Assembly: GCA_963699965.1 (NCBI GenBank)
Contig: CAVOVX010000007.1
Location: forward strand, 14 to 64,013
Direction of reading: 5' to 3'
Length of the DNA stretch: 64,000 nt
Origin: an uncultured Chloroflexia bacterium
GTDB lineage: Bacteria; Chloroflexota; Limnocylindria; Limnocylindrales; CSP1-4
The notes under the pieces are model-generated. The model was given only the letters and a program-made list of their open reading frames with translations, did no database searches and was not told the DNA's origin. Position numbers and translations under genes: made by a program. Shown piece after piece: positions 7,723 to 42,695 of the stretch (within the stretch, counting starts at the first letter, position 1; each line of letters starts with the position of its first letter).

Positions 7723-8217
7723 ATGAGCGACACACCGACCGCGCGCGAGACCGCCGGTCTCGTCGACCTGATGTGGCTGGTCATGCGCCGCATCTGGGAC
7801 CACGCCGAGGAGCGCCTCGCCCCGTACTCGTTGAGCCTCAAGCACAACTGGGCACTCCATGCCCTCGACGAGCCGATGTCGATGAGCGCCCTCGCGGACC
7901 GACTCGGGATCGACGCGTCCTATGTCACGACGATTGCCGACCAGCTCGAGGAGCGCGGCCTCATCGAGCGCCAGCCGCACCGACCGATCGGCGCATCAAG
8001 AGCCTGGCCCTCACGGCGGAGGGGCGGCGACTCCGCGAGAAGCTCGCGGACGAGCTGTGGGTCGAGGTGCCGGTCCTCGATGCGCTCACGGCCGACGAAC
8101 GACGAGAGCTCTGGCGGCTACTCTCGCGGACCATCGACACGGCATCGGCGGACCAGCAGGGCCACGATGGGCGCGCCGATCGGCGCGACCACCGAGGGCC
8201 GCGGCGCCTCGTCGTGA
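7723..8217 (+). CDS. MarR family transcriptional regulator, one frame break near 7985; the 3' end is uncertain
   Basis: MSALADRLGIDASYVTTIADQLEERGLIERQPH, then in another frame PTDRRIKSLALTAEGRRLREKLADELWVEVPVLDALTADERRELWRLLS. Confidence 0.7.
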   Translation: MSDTPTARETAGLVDLMWLVMRRIWDHAEERLAPYSLSLKHNWALHALDEPMSMSALADRLGIDASYVTTIADQLEERGLIERQPHRPIGASRAWPSRRRGGDSARSSRTSCGSRCRSSMRSRPTNDESSGGYSRGPSTRHRRTSRATMGAPIGATTEGRGASS

Positions 8218-36107: not shown

Positions 36108-37033
36108 ATGCCCCCGCCCTGCGGGTCGCCAGCGCCCCGGTCTCATTCGGTGTCGACGAGATCATGTTGGACGACGCCTGGATGCCGGCCCCGGACGACA
36201 TGCTCGACTGGATGGTCGACATCGGGTTCGAGGGCACCGAGCTCGGCACTCCCGGTTACCTCGGCGACGCGAGGCAGGTCAACGAGCGCCTGTCGTCGCG
36301 CGGCCTGGAGTTCGTCGGTTCGTTCATGCCCCAGCACTTCAGCCGCGCGGAGAAGGCCGACGAGGATCGCGCCTGGCTGCGCGACAACCTCCGCCTGATG
36401 AAGGAGGGCTCGCCGGCCGGCTCGCGGCCGTTCGCGATCCTGTCCGACCAGTTCGACGAACCCGACCGCCGGGCCTTCTCGGGGCGGATCCCGGACCATC
36501 CCGAGACGTGGCTGTCCGCGACTCGGTTCGACACGCTCATCGACAATCTCCACCGGGCGGCCGAGATCTGCCGGGCCGAGGGGCTCGAGCCGGTTCTCCA
36601 TCCCCACGCCGGGACCTACGTTGAGACGGCGGACGAGATCGCCCGGGTCATGGACCGGATCGACCCGTCGCTCATCGGCCTCTGCCTCGACACCGGCCAC
36701 TTCCGGTTCGGTGGCGCCGATCCGGCCACCTCCGTCCATGATTACCACGAGCTCGTTCGGCACGTCCACATCAAGGACTGTCGGACCTCGGTCATGGATG
36801 ACGTCAAGCGAGAGGGCAAGGGTCTCGACGAGGCGCTCCGCCGAGGCGTGTTCTGTCCCTTGGGCGAGGGCGACGCCGGGATTGACGCCGTCATCGAGGC
36901 GCTGCGAGCGCACGACTACACGGGCTGGCTCGTGATCGAGCAGGACCAGGCCCTTCGATCGTCGGATACGCCCCAATCGGTCATCGCCGGGCAGCGAGGC
37001 AATCGCGAGTACCTGCGCCGGCTCGGGATCTGA
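36108..37033 (+). CDS. Xylose isomerase-like TIM-barrel protein, IolE (inosose dehydratase)-like; one frame break directly after the ATG
   Basis: GGAGGAA RBS then ATG 36108, then LRVASAPVSFGVDEIMLDDAWMP...GFEGTELGTPGY...LHPHAGTYVET..GLCLDTGHFRFGG..HVHIKDC..GWLVIEQD. Confidence 0.7.
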
Positions 37034-37097
37034 CCGCGCTGGCCGGCGGCCGACGATCGGTTCGGCGGCCAACGGGTCAGCCCGTCGCGACCTGCGG

Positions 37098-38477
37098 TCA
37101 GAGCACGTCCCGATACTCCTGGAGGAACGACGCCGTGGCCTCGACCAACTGGTCGACGTCGTCCTCGGTATGGGCACCGGTCAGGAACCCCCGGATCATG
37201 TAGTGCGGGTGGACGTAGATCCCCCGCTCGAGGAGCCAGTCCCGGTAGCCGCGCTGGACGGGGTGGTTCTTGTCCATCGCGAACCGGGCGAAGTCCCGGA
37301 AGCGTCGGATCGGCTCGTCGGTGAAGTAGATCGTCCAGACCCCGGCGATCGCGCGGACCTGTGCCCGCGCGCCGGTCTCATCGATGGCGGCCTGGATGCC
37401 CGAGGTCAGCCGATCACCGAGCCGGGCCAGGTGCTCGTGGATCGTTCCCTCGAGCACGATCCGCGTCACTTCGAGCGCGACCGCACAGTTCAGCACCTGG
37501 CCGGCGAACGTCCCGGCGAACAGGACGTCGCCCTTGGGGCCGAGGTGGTCCATGACGTCGGCTCGGCCGGCGAGCACCGAGATCGGGAAGCCGTTGCCGA
37601 TGGCCTTGCCCATCGTCGTGAGATCGGGCGTCACCCCATACCGGCCCTGAGCTCCGCCGGGACCGTGGCGGAAGCCGGTGATGACCTCATCGAAGATGAG
37701 GAGCGAGCCGGACGCCGTGCACGCCTCGCGCAGCGTCTCGAGGAAGCCAGGCTCGGGCATGACCGCACCGGCGTTGTGGAAGACGGGCTCCAGGATGACC
37801 GCCGCGATCGTCTCGCCGTCCTCGGCGAGAAGCTCCCGGACACCGGCCGAATCGTTGTACTCGCGGACCTCGACGAGGTCCCGGATGGCAGCCGGGATCC
37901 CGGCCGACGCGGCGATCGGCGTGGGTACCCCGCCGCCCTCGTCCGTCGCGAAGTGATGGCTCCACGCCACGTAGTCGTGCCAGCCGTGGTAGTTGCCCTC
38001 GAATTTCAGGATCCGTTCCCGCCCGGTGAAGCCGCGGGCCAGGCGGATCGCGTGGTAGGTCGCCTCGGTGCCCGTGCAGCTGAACACCACCCGCTCCGCG
38101 GACGGGATCATCGCGATGAGCCGCTCGGCAAGCTCCACCTCGAGCGGATTGGCCGTCGAGAACGACACGCCGTGCTCGTCCATCGCCCGGCGAACGGCGG
38201 CATTGATCCGCGCGTCGTTGTGCCCCAGCAGGACCGCCCCAAACGACGAGTGGAAGTCGATGAACTCGTTGCCGTCGACATCCCAGATCCGCGACCCCTG
38301 GGCACGGGTCATGAACAGGGGATAGGGGCTCGCGCTCCGTCCTTCGCCCTGGACGCCGCCAGGTGACACGGCAGTCGCCCGGGCAAAGAGCTTCTCGGAC
38401 TCCGTCGTCGTGACGGGCCAGCCCGACGCCGCCGGTCGGGTGGCCGCTCCACTTCGGGTCGGGTCGACGGTCGTCAC
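37098..38477 (-). CDS. Class III (aspartate aminotransferase superfamily, GSA-aminomutase-like) PLP aminotransferase, intact
   Basis: 459-aa ORF with GSRIWDVDGNEFIDFHSSFGAVLLGH, VVFSCTGTEATYHAIRLAR, ILEPVFHNAG, LLIFDEVITGFRHG and DLTTMGKAIGNGFP (PLP lysine). Confidence 0.85.
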   Translation of the reverse strand: MTTVDPTRSGAATRPAASGWPVTTTESEKLFARATAVSPGGVQGEGRSASPYPLFMTRAQGSRIWDVDGNEFIDFHSSFGAVLLGHNDARINAAVRRAMDEHGVSFSTANPLEVELAERLIAMIPSAERVVFSCTGTEATYHAIRLARGFTGRERILKFEGNYHGWHDYVAWSHHFATDEGGGVPTPIAASAGIPAAIRDLVEVREYNDSAGVRELLAEDGETIAAVILEPVFHNAGAVMPEPGFLETLREACTASGSLLIFDEVITGFRHGPGGAQGRYGVTPDLTTMGKAIGNGFPISVLAGRADVMDHLGPKGDVLFAGTFAGQVLNCAVALEVTRIVLEGTIHEHLARLGDRLTSGIQAAIDETGARAQVRAIAGVWTIYFTDEPIRRFRDFARFAMDKNHPVQRGYRDWLLERGIYVHPHYMIRGFLTGAHTEDDVDQLVEATASFLQEYRDVL

Positions 38478-38497
38478 GGTGCCTCCAATCCTCGATG

Positions 38498-39688
38498 TCA
38501 GAGCCCGGCGGGCAGCACGACTGCCGTGCGGGTGCCGCTCGCTGCCGCCTCGTACAGCGCGTCGAGGACGGCGCTGTCACGAACGCCATCCGAGAAGTCG
38601 GCGGAGCCCGGCCGGCCGCCCGCGATGGCGTCGACGAACTCGGCCCACATTGCGCACTCCTGGCCGAGCCAGCCGATCGACGTTCCATCGGTGCCGGCGA
38701 TGAGCAGCTCAGGCGCGCCCGGGTGGGCGGGGTTCACGAGGACCCGCCGGAAGCCGAACGTGAACGGGTCGCCGGGCAGGCAGACCCGGAACTCATCCGG
38801 TCGCTCGAGGTCCCAGTCCGCGGATCCGCGCGAGCCGAACACCTCGAGCTGGAGCGAGATCCGCTTGCCGATCGCGACGCGGCTCGCCTCGAGCACCCCA
38901 TAGGCGCCGCTCTCGAAGGTCACGAGCGCCGCCGCCGCGTCCTCGACGTCGACCGGTCCGGTCTCGCCCCGGCCCGATCGGGCGGCGTCGCCGCCGCGGT
39001 TGCCGACCGCATCGGCGCCGGGGAGCGGTCGCTCGGCGATGAACGTCGCCGCCAATGCCTGCACGGTCACGATCTCCCCGACCAGGAATCGGGCGCAATC
39101 GACGAGGTGATACCCGGTGTCGATCGCGATCCCGCCACCGGCGAACCGCTTCTGGAATCGCCACAGGAGCGGAACGTCTGGATCGGCGGCGTAGTCGAGC
39201 ATGAAGGCTGCCCGGATGCTGCGGATCGTTCCGAGCTCGCCCTCGCGGATGAGCCGCTCGATGGCGCGGACGGCGGGCGACCAGCGATAGCCCGCCCCGA
39301 GGCCGTGGAACACCCGCGCCGCTCGACAGGCACGAAGCATCAGGGCGGCGTCCTCGGCCGACTCGGCCATCGGCTTCTCACACACGATGTGCTTCCCGGC
39401 GGCGGCGGCGGCGAGCACGATGTCGCGGTTCAGGGCGGGCGGCAGGCAGACGACGACGAGATCGATATCGGCCGCGGCGATGACCGCATCGGCGTCGTCG
39501 GCGACCCGCTCGTAGCCGAAACGATCGGCCAGGCTGGTCGCGAGGCCCCGGTTCACGTCGGCCACCGCGACGAGGCGCGGTCGACGTGGGAGCTGCCGGT
39601 AGAGGGCCGCGAGGTTTGCCAGGGCCGCGCTGTGCGCACCGGCCATCGTGCCGGCCCCGATCATCCCGATCCGCAGCTCGTCGGTCAT
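38498..39688 (-). CDS. Gfo/Idh/MocA family oxidoreductase, intact
   Basis: 396-aa ORF with LRIGMIGAGTMAGAHSAAL, DLVVVCLPPALNRDIVLAAAAAGKHIVCEKPMA and GGIAIDTGYHLVDCARFLVG. Confidence 0.85.
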   Translation of the reverse strand: MTDELRIGMIGAGTMAGAHSAALANLAALYRQLPRRPRLVAVADVNRGLATSLADRFGYERVADDADAVIAAADIDLVVVCLPPALNRDIVLAAAAAGKHIVCEKPMAESAEDAALMLRACRAARVFHGLGAGYRWSPAVRAIERLIREGELGTIRSIRAAFMLDYAADPDVPLLWRFQKRFAGGGIAIDTGYHLVDCARFLVGEIVTVQALAATFIAERPLPGADAVGNRGGDAARSGRGETGPVDVEDAAAALVTFESGAYGVLEASRVAIGKRISLQLEVFGSRGSADWDLERPDEFRVCLPGDPFTFGFRRVLVNPAHPGAPELLIAGTDGTSIGWLGQECAMWAEFVDAIAGGRPGSADFSDGVRDSAVLDALYEAAASGTRTAVVLPAGL

Positions 39689-39806
39689 CGAAGCTCCAGA
39701 TCCGTGCGTCGGCCAGGTTGACCGGGCCAGAGCGTATCAAATGCGGGAACGATTGCACACGCCCCGGCTGGACGCTGGCCGGAGGCAGGTCGCCGAGAGG
39801 CGACCG

Positions 39807-40733
39807 TCAGGCGATCAGGGGCCGGATGAAGGCGGCGGCCTCCTCGACGCCTTCCACCGCGGGCTGATACGGATCCTCGTTCTCGATCGAGAGCGGGCCG
39901 TCGTAGCCCACCGACCGAAGAGCGGCGATGAACGAAGACCACCACGTTCGGTCATGGATGCGACCGACGGTTCGGAAGACCCACGCCCGATCGCGAGCGT
40001 CGCCAAACGCCGTCGTATCGAGCACGCCCGCCAGCGCCAGGCGATCGGGCTGCAGGCCGGTGTCCTTGAGGTGGACGTGCTGGATGGCCGTCCCGAGGGC
40101 CGCGATCGCGGCCAGCGGGTCCATCTGCTGCCAGAACAGGTGCGACGGGTCCATGTTCGCGCCGATGACCGGGCCGACGGCCTCGCGCATCCGACGCAGG
40201 GTCGGGACGTTGAACACGAGGTGGAGGGGATGGAGCTCGAAGGCGATCTGCTTGACCCCGCACGCGGTGGCGTGGGCCGCCATGTCCTGCCAGAAGGGGA
40301 TCGCCGCGTCCCACTGGCGGGCCTGGAGGGCGACGGCGTCGGCGGGCCAGGGGTAGAACACCCAGTCGACCGTGGTGGCACCCGGTCCGTCACCGGGCGT
40401 GCCGGACATCGAGACGACCGTTTCGACGCCGAGCTCACCGGCTAGCCGGATCGTGTCCCGGATGATCCGCTCCTGGGCGGGCCCGTGGGCCGGATGGAGC
40501 GGCCAGGCGGAGCAGTTGAGGGCCGCGATGCGCAGCCCGCGGGTCGCGAATGCACTGGCGAACGCCGTCCGCTTGCCCCGGTCGCCCAGGAGCACTCCGA
40601 GCTCGAGGTGGGGCGCCGAGGACTGGCCACCGCCGGCGATCTCGATCGAGCCGCAGCCGATCCGCGCCGCGAGGTCGAGGGCGGCCTCGAACGACAGCTC
40701 GGCCACCGAGTCCGTGTACAGGCACAGGTCCAA
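39807..40733 (-). CDS. Sugar phosphate isomerase/epimerase (xylose isomerase-like TIM barrel), intact
   Basis: 308-aa ORF with GCGSIEIAGGG, IAFELHPLHLV, GANMDPSHLFWQ, HVHLKD and GYDGPLSIENED. Confidence 0.85.
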   Translation of the reverse strand: MDLCLYTDSVAELSFEAALDLAARIGCGSIEIAGGGQSSAPHLELGVLLGDRGKRTAFASAFATRGLRIAALNCSAWPLHPAHGPAQERIIRDTIRLAGELGVETVVSMSGTPGDGPGATTVDWVFYPWPADAVALQARQWDAAIPFWQDMAAHATACGVKQIAFELHPLHLVFNVPTLRRMREAVGPVIGANMDPSHLFWQQMDPLAAIAALGTAIQHVHLKDTGLQPDRLALAGVLDTTAFGDARDRAWVFRTVGRIHDRTWWSSFIAALRSVGYDGPLSIENEDPYQPAVEGVEEAAAFIRPLIA

Positions 40734-40804
40734 GGCATGACTCCGTCTACGGGGCGCTGGCCGACCCGACGCGCGGCCCGTTCAGCCGGGGCAGCGCTCG
40801 GGCA

Positions 40805-41905
40805 TCAGGACCGGAGGTCCGGGTTGGGCAGGACGGCGTCGCCGACCTGGTGGAGGAGCTCGTGGTACGAGGCGATGAAGGCCCGGAGCGTGCGGACGGT
40901 CGGCGGGAATCCGTCGAACTCGTCGACAGTCAGTCCATCCGGTTCATAGGCCCGCACGAAGTCGGGAAAGTGGCGGGCCAGCTCGCCGACGATCGCCGGG
41001 TCGACCGGTTCGTCCATGCGCGGGCGAACCTCCACGTCGGAGGCGTTGAAGCGGCGTTGCCAGACGGACGGCAGGGTGACGATGACGTCGCCGCCGATGA
41101 GCTGGCTCCAGTGGTAGTGGTGGCGGATCGCAGCGCCGAGCAGCCGCGCCCGGAGGCCGCGCGTCCGGAAGATTTCGTACGCCCGCTTGAACACCGCGAC
41201 CCCCGACCAGGGCAGGGCGACCGGATCGACGACGATCCCGTCGCGCTCGGTCTGGACCCGGAGCCAGTCCTCGATCCGGCCCATCATGATCGTGATGACC
41301 GGACCCATCCGGTCCACCGGCAGGCCCTCGTTCTGGCGCCGCTGGAGGCCACGCTCGACGGCCTCGGCCGCCGCGACGGCCTGGCTGACGCTGAAGCTCA
41401 CGGTGCAGTTGACGCTCACCCCGCGATAGGTCGCCTCTTCCATGACCGCGATCCCGACCGAGGTCGCCGGGAACTTCACCACGATGTTCGGGGCGAGCCC
41501 GTCGAACCGGACGCCCTGGGCGAGCATCTGGTCGGGCGTTCGCCAGAAGGTCGGGTTCGTCTGGACCGACAATCGACCCTGGCGCCCCTCGAACCGATCG
41601 AATGCAGGGAGCAGGAGCGGAGCGGCCCGGACCGACATCGCCTCCACGATCGCCCAGGCCAGATCGACTTCGGTCCACCCGGGATGCTCCGTCGCCAGGC
41701 CCGCCGTCACGGCCCGCCAGTACGCCGGATCCGCCTTCCAGACGTCGTGGACGATCGTCGGATTGGCCGTCGCGCCGACCGCACCGTTCGCGATCGCGTA
41801 CTCCAGCTCGTCGACGGCGCACGAATCGTTCCAGATGTCCGTTGCGGTCTCGGCCACCGTTCGGGCTAACGGGCTGAGCGCGGTCGTGTCCACCTGGCTA
41901 CCCAT
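40805..41905 (-). CDS. tal: Transaldolase family protein, intact
   Basis: 366-aa ORF with DIWNDSC, GATANPTIV, GRLSVQTNP, NIVVKFPATSVGI (Schiff-base lysine context) and GVSVNCTVSFS. Confidence 0.8.
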   Translation of the reverse strand: MGSQVDTTALSPLARTVAETATDIWNDSCAVDELEYAIANGAVGATANPTIVHDVWKADPAYWRAVTAGLATEHPGWTEVDLAWAIVEAMSVRAAPLLLPAFDRFEGRQGRLSVQTNPTFWRTPDQMLAQGVRFDGLAPNIVVKFPATSVGIAVMEEATYRGVSVNCTVSFSVSQAVAAAEAVERGLQRRQNEGLPVDRMGPVITIMMGRIEDWLRVQTERDGIVVDPVALPWSGVAVFKRAYEIFRTRGLRARLLGAAIRHHYHWSQLIGGDVIVTLPSVWQRRFNASDVEVRPRMDEPVDPAIVGELARHFPDFVRAYEPDGLTVDEFDGFPPTVRTLRAFIASYHELLHQVGDAVLPNPDLRS

Positions 41906-42203
41906 CGACCGACACGAGAATCGGCCCGGCGTCGGTCTCCATCTCGATGTGCTGACGAACGCCTGCAGCCGCGAGCCAGTCGCGGAACCGTTCCGCCCCC
42001 GGCGTGCCCTGGTCGGCCAATTCCCATTCGGCGACGGCGATGGTCGTTCGCGGTCCCGCGCGCATCAGCCGATAGCGGACGAACCCGGGTTGCGCTCGGA
42101 ACACCGTGCTGCCGTCCCGGGCGATGAGCTCCACGAGGTCACGGCCCGCCTCGCTGTCCAGGTCGACATCCCAGGTCGCACGCGTCGTGCGCAGGTACCT
42201 CAT
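41898..42203 (-). CDS. Small ABM/Dabb-fold (antibiotic biosynthesis monooxygenase-like) protein; first gene of the minus-strand operon
   Basis: 101-aa ORF whose end overlaps the transaldolase start by 8 nt. GFVRYRLMRAGPRTTIAVAEWELADQ is reminiscent of the ABM fold; the assignment is weak. Confidence 0.45.
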   Translation of the reverse strand: MRYLRTTRATWDVDLDSEAGRDLVELIARDGSTVFRAQPGFVRYRLMRAGPRTTIAVAEWELADQGTPGAERFRDWLAAAGVRQHIEMETDAGPILVSVDG

Positions 42204-42245
42204 GTCGCATTCTAGGCTCGGCGCGATGGCTCAGAGAGGCGCGCG

Positions 42246-42695
42246 TCAGCGAGCGCGACCCTCGCCCAGGGTGGCGACCGACCTGGCGATCCGCCGCTGG
42301 CGCGTCTCGTCGGTCTTGGCGCCCTCGACCTGGAGGACGTGCCATTGCCGGTTGCTGTACGACAGGCCGTCAAACGTGCGCCTGGCTGGAGGCTCGGCGT
42401 CGAGCGCCGCCGCGAAGTCAGCCGGCACGGTCACCTCGCGCGGTGCGCTATCGAGCTCGATGTCGACGTCGACCTCGTCGCCGCCGGCGACACCGGCTCC
42501 GGCCCGGTGCTGGGCGCTCACGCCGACCCAGAACTCGCCGCCCATCACGGCGATCGTGTTGCGATAGGTGTAGCCCTTGATCGTCACCCGGACCGGTGGG
42601 CGCTTGCCCGCCCCGAGTCCCTCGACGATCTCGTCAGGCACCCGGATCCCGGTGGCCGTGCCGTCGCTCTGATGGATGGTCGTGCGGAATCGCAT
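42246..42695 (-). CDS. DUF1905 plus YdeI/OmpD-associated domain protein
   Basis: GAGGAG RBS. MRFRTTIHQSDGTATGIRVPDEIVEGLGAGKRPPVRVTIKGYTYRNTIAVMGGEFWVGVS...FDGLSYSNRQWHVLQVEGAKTDETRQRRIARSV. Confidence 0.65.
   Translation of the reverse strand: MRFRTTIHQSDGTATGIRVPDEIVEGLGAGKRPPVRVTIKGYTYRNTIAVMGGEFWVGVSAQHRAGAGVAGGDEVDVDIELDSAPREVTVPADFAAALDAEPPARRTFDGLSYSNRQWHVLQVEGAKTDETRQRRIARSVATLGEGRAR

Follow-up and report, generated by a model that had tools for sequence, protein, structure and literature searches.

A mosaic five-gene block at the edge of a strain-variable inositol island in an uncultured Limnocylindria bacterium, and its possible part in amino-cyclitol catabolism

What brings an aminotransferase, a dehydrogenase, a TIM barrel, a transaldolase-like enzyme and a small ABM-fold protein together in one tightly packed block beside genes for inositol catabolism? 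The question is raised by a 64,000-nucleotide (nt) stretch of contig CAVOVX010000007.1 (assembly GCA_963699965.1; base composition, 70% GC) from an uncultured bacterium of the Limnocylindria (Chloroflexota), the whole of which we refer to as the window. A preliminary description of the five minus-strand genes, here called AT, GFO, TIM, TAL and ABM (Table 1), took them for a self-contained cassette acting on amino-sugars or aminocyclitols. We find that the block consists of three separately inherited pieces—a passenger (ABM), a gene of the inositol (iol) cluster (TAL) and a TIM–GFO–AT group at the end of a strain-variable island. With somewhat more confidence than doubt, we read the block as mosaic in origin, placed at the right-hand margin of a LacI-controlled inositol and amine island and feeding an amino-cyclitol into inositol catabolism. 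New here are the division of the block into three modules, the placing of the island boundary between TAL and TIM, the candidate internal operator and promoter, the optional nature of GFO–AT, and the residue arguments for AT and TAL.

Three separately inherited pieces

We compared the window with 80 genome loci encoding TAL relatives, nearly all from metagenome-assembled genomes labelled Chloroflexota/Limnocylindria (three carry other phylum labels). Reference proteins were mapped by tblastn onto these loci and onto several further contigs with gene calls; clustering of open reading frames (ORFs) from the 80 loci was unusable owing to antisense shadow ORFs in 70% GC DNA. Wider distribution was surveyed in 151 genomes of the class and 401 genomes of the phylum. 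The full set of five is confined to this contig, in the form of the window and of a second public assembly (L081); in other lineages its parts are separate, which does not bear out the co-occurrence expected of a self-contained cassette. Nor did a cassette conserved away from iol genes come to light: AT is present in 6 of the 151 class genomes, all of which also have TAL and a true IolD.

An island boundary runs through the block. The sister genome G506 (locus L001) has 94–96% nucleotide identity to the window in the flanks, and both blastn alignment and the junction sequences place it colinear with the window through DUF1905–ABM–TAL to position 40767, after which it resumes at 8143. The right boundary falls 38 nt past the TAL stop codon. 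Because G506, which has no AT orthologue and no IolB, keeps ABM–TAL only, TIM, GFO and AT are members of the island and ABM and TAL belong to its flank. The island carries iol genes, two large genes of the CehA/McbA type, a PotD-type importer operon and TIM–GFO–AT; its iol set comprises IolG-like and IolE-like proteins, a true IolD, IolB and an IolC-like kinase, together with two ABC importers and their binding proteins. The same architecture is found in G507 and G508 (L002 and L003, the nearest syntenic relatives of the window), in which two iolB copies lie 10–18 kb from AT. The island junctions show only short CGTCGA-like microhomology, and deletion in G506 and insertion in the window are indistinguishable.

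A candidate regulatory site divides the block a second time. Four promoter regions of the island (10101, 14880, 21864 and 29655) hold strong matches to the operator consensus TGCAAWCGWTTGCA, and the preliminary description had pointed to a weak half-site between TIM and GFO. That site (TGCAATCGTTCCCG) is present, although by itself it is at chance level (it has three mismatches to the consensus; seven sites were found, against 2.0 expected); its position, on the other hand, is conserved. In L086, the TIM–GFO gap contains GTGCAATCGTTCC...TGATAGGCT at the same position and with the same left half, and in L087 a complete site, TGCAATCGTTTGCC...TGCTAGGCT, lies some 70 nt ahead of GFO. Across the three lineages, the site is followed after 3–5 nt by TG(A/C)TA(C/G)GCT, an extended −10-like element (in the window, TGATACGCT). 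This arrangement makes 39731–39757 a likely internal repressor-controlled promoter for GFO–AT. Because no operator precedes ABM or the adjoining DUF1905 gene in the window, TAL and TIM may have escaped LacI control here.

The physical description of the block withstood re-examination. All five ORFs are coding, as marked by the GC content of third codon positions (0.83–0.89), and the five proteins have the same length as their homologues. The 8-nt overlap of ABM and TAL and the gaps of 71 nt (TAL–TIM), 118 nt (TIM–GFO) and 20 nt (GFO–AT) gave the same values on recount, and the block converges, as described, with a plus-strand operon that stops at 37033, facing AT. Four of the gene labels are backed by Pfam and NCBIfam, and that of ABM by its homologues and its AlphaFold2 (AF2) fold. 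Between 36.8 and 42.5 kb we found no terminator-like or promoter site by consensus scanning, which is uninformative for a Chloroflexota genome. Over 21 kb (window 30779–51898), 280 mismatches and 77 indels separate L081 from the window and cluster at 31–34 kb, 42.5–44 kb and 48.5–51.5 kb; none of the indels lies within 36.5–42.3 kb. The frame breaks in the importer, alcohol dehydrogenase (ADH), cyclophilin and DUF885 genes fall at different positions in the window and in L081. Given that the indels of L081 fall elsewhere and none in the block, the broken frames around it are noise of assembly or polishing, or a strain mixture. Public contig sets matching the stretch come from soil and freshwater DNA only, and a search for it among RNA runs gave no match.

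ABM is a genuine gene of the ABM superfamily that is not tied to the pathway. Its own score on PF03992 is 18.5 bits, under the Pfam cut-off of 23.1; among its 373 homologues, the family is matched by all 34 that were aligned. The AF2 model (pLDDT 96.7) has a beta-alpha-beta-beta-alpha-beta fold, with SnoaB (TM 0.76), RslO4 and MhuD as top Foldseek matches. Homologues at 66–67% identity adjoin a copper oxidase and a beta-lactamase, or amidohydrolases, and ABM lies before TAL only in the window and L001, between which its ratio of nonsynonymous to synonymous substitution rates (dN/dS) is 0.08, a mark of purifying selection. A DUF1905 gene, present only in the window, L001 and L081, lies 42 nt upstream on the same strand and is a possible sixth cistron of the block. 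Both genes are lineage-specific passengers. Between them (42204–42245), a TAGAAT hexamer ends 5 nt ahead of the ABM start codon (ATG) and there is no Shine–Dalgarno sequence; judging from these letters, ABM may have a leaderless transcript start or be reached by read-through from DUF1905.

Table 1 Features of the block and its surroundings (window coordinates)
Feature	Position	Strand	Description
AT, aminotransferase	37098–38477	minus	459-amino-acid (aa) ORF
GFO, Gfo/Idh/MocA dehydrogenase	38498–39688	minus	396 aa ORF
TIM, TIM barrel	39807–40733	minus	308 aa ORF, TTG start
TAL, transaldolase-like	40805–41905	minus	366 aa ORF
ABM	41898–42203	minus	101 aa ORF
DUF1905/OmdA gene	42246–42695	minus	PF08922 and PF13376; 149 aa gene call in L081
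Operator-like site TGCAATCGTTCCCG	39744–39757	minus	in the TIM–GFO gap
Extended −10-like element TGATACGCT	39731–39739	minus	after the operator-like site
TAL–TIM gap	40734–40804		71 nt; holds the right island boundary 40766/40767
Gap between convergent stops of importer operon and AT	37034–37097		64 nt; no canonical terminator seen
Strain-variable island	8144–40766		32.6 kb; absent between the same flanks in L001/G506

The transaldolase-like gene of the inositol cluster

TAL in Limnocylindria is a gene of the iol cluster. IolB (241–267 bits on TIGR04378; cut-off, 205) directly follows TAL in 57 of the 68 loci that extend far enough, IolD-like, IolE or IolG genes lie divergently upstream in 49/73, and a LacI-type operator is found 50–70 nt upstream in L002, L003, L005 and L082. 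TIM directly follows TAL in 2/68 loci (L002 and L003), the order also seen in the window, L081 and the short contig L006. No kinase or aldolase gene was found within 8 kb of TAL in the 80 loci. Among class genomes with IolD, canonical IolC is present in 40 of the 42 that lack TAL and in 2 of the 17 that have it, 10 of these 17 having no IolC-like gene. The dN/dS of TAL between the window genome and G506 is 0.09. The window's own genome (G000) has a second, short-type transaldolase gene that is split across two frames (C6:517493-518046) and probably represents the housekeeping enzyme, interrupted by an assembly frameshift.

Family membership is clear at the level of the fold (116.6 bits on PF00923, TAL_FSA; gathering score, 27), and all NCBIfam transaldolase models score below cut-off (best, PRK03343 with 89 against 367 bits), as does the FSA model TIGR00875 (42 against 246). 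In alignment with 3r5e, the Schiff-base lysine K144 in VKFPAT matches IKIPAT and is invariant in 15 homologues, and two further positions are invariant in the family: Gln115 in place of the catalytic Glu (GRLSVQTNP against GRVSIEVDP) and Met207 (ITIMMGR against SFFVSR). Both distal arginines (Arg210 and Arg261) are retained. The corresponding residues are the catalytic Glu96 and Phe178 in E. coli TalB, and Gln59 and Tyr131 in FSA. TAL thus shares with these enzymes the PF00923 fold, the lysine of the V-K-F-P-A-T motif and the distal Arg, but has Gln115 for Glu96 and Met207 for Phe178 of TalB; with FSA it also shares the Gln, and it differs in having Met207 for Tyr131 and a chain of 366 aa rather than about 220 aa. 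Judged by these alignments, the active site is neither transaldolase-type nor FSA-type.

The tight coupling of TAL to IolB points to the product of IolB as the substrate, and TAL would most likely cleave this compound, 2-deoxy-5-keto-D-gluconate, without a kinase. The molecule resembles fructose in its C3/C4 configuration and carries a distal anion. A role as an inosose ring-opening retro-aldolase is chemically possible but a minor possibility, as the coupling favours the IolB product. A mechanistic model may be found in the sulfofructose transaldolase BmSF-TAL (PDB 8bc3), which is likewise a transaldolase-fold enzyme within a catabolic cluster and cleaves a non-phosphorylated 6-substituted ketohexose analogue, saving a kinase step; TAL differs from it in that similarity amounts to only 34 bits, SF-TAL is short and decameric, and the predicted substrate of TAL is a keto-deoxy-aldonate. 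A literature search returned nothing relevant on a transaldolase in inositol catabolism.

Two types of TAL cluster are of note for enzymes that depend, or may depend, on thiamine pyrophosphate (TPP). The TPP enzyme encoded divergently from TAL–IolB in most type I loci (L082:8036-9853) scores 309 bits on TIGR04377 (cut-off, 715) and higher on acetolactate-synthase models, and the adjoining IolG and IolE are also below their cut-offs. By these scores it is not a true IolD, and the 'plain' type I cluster may be a variant pathway too. An apparent result of many TAL genomes without IolD (at E ≤ 1e-100) was discarded as misleading, because this divergent IolD/acetolactate-synthase-like protein beside TAL falls just outside that threshold. 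In a type II cluster (L088:14903-18829), AcoAB-like genes for E1 alpha, E1 beta and E2 and a cyclase-family gene stand beside LacI. The 21 kb retrieved for L088 contain no IolD, although related type II genomes have a true IolD about 17–18 kb from TAL; the AcoAB-like genes might provide another TPP-dependent route that cleaves a ring diketone.

The TIM barrel, dehydrogenase and aminotransferase

TIM belongs to PF01261 (AP_endonuc_2; 95 bits), with sequence matches to 2zds (72 bits) and 8ro4 (30 bits), and reaches 25.6 bits on the IolE equivalog TIGR04379 (cut-off, 290). Its AF2 model (pLDDT 89) gave Foldseek TM values of 0.81 to SCO6571 and 0.80 to AtHYD, compared with 0.63–0.65 to IolE and 0.60–0.69 for IolE and ketose epimerases overall; sequence identity to the structural neighbours is 20–26% (20% to AtHYD). 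AtHYD is a 2-hydroxy-3-keto-glucal hydratase that is partnered with a Gfo reductase (PMC10628242). On the basis of the model, we predict that TIM is a keto-cyclitol or keto-sugar (de)hydratase or isomerase. Its TTG start codon is preceded by a Shine–Dalgarno-like GGAG in the TAL–TIM gap (40734–40804).

GFO contains the domains PF01408, PF02894 and PF22725. Among solved structures it matches levoglucosan dehydrogenase (LGDH; 6a3f, 255 bits) and scyllo-inositol/L-glucose dehydrogenase (5ya8, 188 bits); the best NCBIfam model is that for LGDH (NF052479, 302 bits), under its cut-off of 650, and the match to IolG (TIGR04380, 130 bits; cut-off, 355) covers the N-terminal domain only. These matches place GFO in the levoglucosan-dehydrogenase/scyllo-inositol-dehydrogenase clade. 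In pairing a Gfo oxidoreductase with a xylose-isomerase-like TIM barrel on keto-sugars or keto-cyclitols, the locus resembles LGDH, the Paracoccus scyllo-inositol (L-glucose) dehydrogenase and AtHYD systems. It differs from LGDH/AtHYD systems in that GFO–TIM is coupled to an aminotransferase and GFO is far under the LGDH cut-off.

AT is a class III aminotransferase (220.6 bits on PF00202; gathering score, 30.5) that lies just above the cut-off of PRK00062 (404 against 398) and below that of the hemL equivalog TIGR00713 (381 against 527). It scores about 290 bits to solved glutamate-1-semialdehyde (GSA) aminomutases, and its relatives also include PctV and CrmG. With HemL (2gsa) it shares the fold, the pyridoxal phosphate (PLP)-binding lysine (in TTMGKAIGNG, aligned with that of the aminomutase) and, by hand counting of residues on the alignment, the equivalent of Arg32; the same count shows that Ser29 is lost and that Ile-Arg stands in place of Glu406, and the gating loop has a different form. 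Unlike HemL, AT is patchily distributed and always lies within iol islands: orthologues were found in 6/151 class genomes and 2/401 phylum genomes. Because of this sparse distribution, the hemL score and the replacement of Ser29 and Glu406, AT is predicted to be a true, specialised transaminase of the GSA-aminomutase-like subfamily and not HemL. The phylum search outside Limnocylindria gave only matches of 42–46% identity, as did the same-family genome G023 (42%), and we assume these to be paralogues. A search for hemL in G000, which is 70% complete, gave nothing at the TIGR00713 cut-off; the best hits were AT (381 bits) and C6:262114-263376 (362 bits). The block as a whole falls in none of the HemL, TalB/FSA, LGDH, IolG and IolE equivalogs, each tested score being under its cut-off or a defining residue being replaced.

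The linkage of AT is consistent. In all six genomes with AT, TAL and a true IolD (>820 bits) lie in the same 35-kb neighbourhood, within about 20 kb of AT. Of the 80 loci, 14 contain AT; in 13 of these it is immediately preceded by GFO, and in 11 the two genes are convergent with a TIM-barrel gene at the end of an operon for a zinc-dependent ADH (Zn-ADH) and an importer. This convergent arrangement is held in L086 and L087, where GFO–AT has no TAL nearby, and GFO is found without AT in L014, L036 and L043. Because 8 of the 14 loci that carry the module of DegT aminotransferase, Zn-ADH and importer have no AT, GFO–AT is an optional add-on. Except for G098 and G113, the six genomes with AT are the TAL-bearing genomes with a divergent IolC-like kinase (183–260 bits; cut-off, 300), which may have its place in the amine branch instead of plain inositol use.

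The partner operon reads, in L086 and L087, PotA-like ATPase, SBP_bac_6 binding protein, two permeases, (an F420-type LLM protein,) Zn-ADH and an IolE-like TIM barrel. The LLM belongs to the F420 Rv1855c type, the Zn-ADH is similar to L-threonine 3-dehydrogenases, and a DegT aminotransferase is a constant member of the importer module. With a PotD-type importer, Zn-ADH, LLM and constant DegT, the import of an amine-bearing cyclitol or polyol would fit. AT had been described as evolutionarily unrelated to the other aminotransferase of the locus, which is too strong: AT and DegT both also weakly match Aminotran_1_2, and both belong to PLP fold type I. In three genomes of another genus (G149, G128 and G131; L096–L101), TAL, IolB, DegT, a second Gfo gene (Gfo370), GFO and AT form one operon, convergent with TIM, Zn-ADH and importer, and a true IolD, a large metallohydrolase and LLM lie 10–20 kb away; relative to the window, gene content is conserved and order is different.

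A proposed amino-cyclitol branch and its rivals

Gene identities, linkage patterns, island structure and the conserved placing of the operator-like site are observations; from them we infer the following substrates and order of reactions. TIM–GFO–AT would be an accessory branch that works with the convergent importer operon. The imported compound would be deaminated and adjusted in redox state step by step until it reached the iol core; the optional GFO–AT pair, which a repressor-controlled promoter within the block would drive, would contribute a second dehydrogenase/aminotransferase step alongside DegT. AT would turn the amine of an imported amino-cyclitol or related amino-polyol into a carbonyl, GFO would interconvert ring hydroxyl and ketone in the manner of scyllo-inositol dehydrogenases, and TIM would hydrate, dehydrate or isomerise the keto intermediate; an inosose or inositol would thereby reach IolG/E/D/B. 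TAL would then split 2-deoxy-5-keto-D-gluconate by way of a Lys144 Schiff base into malonate semialdehyde and a C3 unit—released as dihydroxyacetone or passed to glyceraldehyde-3-phosphate—and this step would bypass the IolC kinase and the aldolase.

With the B. subtilis-type pathway (IolG/E/D/B/C/J/A), the island shares IolG-, IolE- and IolC-like proteins, IolD, IolB and LacI-type repression, and the genes of the block are attached to these pathway genes both physically and by regulation. It differs in having a LacD-type aldolase and a transaldolase-family enzyme in place of IolJ, no class II form of which was found among the island ORFs scanned. Added to the B. subtilis set are two aminotransferases, extra Gfo dehydrogenases, an amine-type importer, an F420-type LLM, a Zn-ADH and large metallohydrolases. 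Catabolic moc systems for rhizopine (scyllo-inosamine), StsC/BtrS and NeoA also bring a Gfo dehydrogenase, an IolE-like TIM barrel, an aminotransferase and a Zn-ADH together around an inositol core, in an iol-dependent way. Their aminotransferases are DegT-type and AT is class III; compared with moc, the island is without a Rieske demethylase, its importer is PotD-type, and organism and gene order are unrelated. For the aminocyclitol enzymes of aminoglycosides, the biosynthetic side is covered in PMC6668481. Our literature search gave nothing relevant on inosamine catabolic aminotransferases.

Several points weigh against the proposed route. On the side of the amine branch, the operator-like site between TIM and GFO has three mismatches to the consensus and only its left half intact, the partner binding protein is PotD/PotF-like only weakly (42 bits), and the island already has a DegT gene. 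To our knowledge, no class III aminotransferase acts on inosamines, the known enzymes being DegT-type. As for TAL, G506 retains it intact and under purifying selection without IolB and AT, and it may therefore have an iol-independent role; moreover, with an IolC-like kinase and a LacD-type aldolase also encoded in the window genome, the pathway does not depend on TAL for its completion here. The inverse occurrence of IolC and TAL runs along the lines between families (f3 against f1/f4) and is thus confounded by phylogeny. Finally, the likeness of GFO and TIM to LGDH and AtHYD fits oxidative glycoside cleavage equally well.

Such cleavage is an unlikely alternative, yet one with some claim to attention. 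GFO would oxidise C3 of a glycoside that contains inositol or an amino sugar, TIM would eliminate or hydrate, and AT would take the amino-sugar half; a pseudo-disaccharide of GlcN and inositol or an aminoglycoside fragment could be handled by LGDH/LgdB or AtOGE/AtHYD logic, freeing inositol for iol. The best solved relative of GFO is indeed LGDH (255 bits), TIM is near AtHYD (TM 0.80), which works with a Gfo reductase (PMC10628242), and the island supplies a large CehA/McbA-type hydrolase and an amine-type importer. However, GFO reaches only 302 of the 650 bits demanded by the LGDH model, no eliminase homologue was identified, TIM is 20% identical to AtHYD, and in most loci GFO adjoins AT with TIM on the opposite strand.

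A narrower form of the amine route, in which the substrate is a diamino-cyclitol of the kind that forms aminoglycoside cores (streptamine or 2-deoxystreptamine), seems rather improbable: after PotD-fold import, DegT with Gfo370 and GFO with AT would remove one amine each, followed by iol ring opening and kinase-free cleavage of 2-deoxy-5-keto-D-gluconate by TAL, whose Lys/Gln/Met site would define a new class of transaldolase-fold enzyme.

We give little credence to a plain funnel for inositol isomers, with GFO as a scyllo- or D-chiro-inositol dehydrogenase (IolX/IolW-like), TIM as an inosose isomerase (IolI-like) and AT unrelated, scavenging nitrogen from a small amine. The score of GFO to scyllo-inositol dehydrogenase (188 bits), the place of TIM in the IolI/IolE superfamily and the three loci with GFO but no AT would suit such a function; against it stand GFO before AT in 13/14 loci with a probable shared promoter/operator, the amine-type importer and the constancy of DegT in the module.

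That the five genes form one self-contained amino-sugar or aminocyclitol module independent of iol genes, as first proposed, is now very unlikely. The shared strand, tight spacing, 8-nt overlap, lack of a terminator-like site and intactness amid frame-broken neighbours all gave that impression. Set against them are co-occurrence limited to the window's own contig, with no other lineage keeping the parts together, an island edge that falls between TAL and TIM, a likely internal operator/promoter that divides the block, and AT never found without iol genes. Of the original proposal, the link to an amine-bearing cyclitol or sugar remains reasonable; the single unit has no support.

A chance assembly of housekeeping genes (AT as HemL, TAL as pentose-phosphate transaldolase) is scarcely credible: AT exceeds the PRK00062 cut-off (404 against 398) and the 70%-complete genome has no better hemL, but AT orthologues are confined to 6/151 class and 2/401 phylum genomes, the hemL score is 381 against 527, Glu406 is lost, a second, short-type transaldolase exists and TAL has no catalytic Glu. 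Biosynthesis of an aminocyclitol or amino-sugar natural product can be given hardly any weight either, for although AT counts PctV and CrmG among its relatives and pairs of dehydrogenase and aminotransferase install amines in aminoglycoside pathways, the island has two ABC importers with binding proteins, LacI repressors with operators and ring-cleavage genes, and no glycosyltransferase, cyclase or resistance gene.

The automatic labels 'transaldolase', 'glutamate-1-semialdehyde aminomutase' and 'levoglucosan dehydrogenase' are thus probably wrong at this locus. Two features would, if confirmed, be new to the textbook pathway of inositol catabolism: an ending in which an enzyme of transaldolase fold makes a kinase unnecessary, and a branch by which amine-bearing cyclitols enter. 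The Limnocylindria of soil are abundant and uncultured; their island hints at a sink for inositols derived from phytate, perhaps also for the cores of aminoglycosides, and suggests enrichment substrates with which members of the class might be brought into culture.

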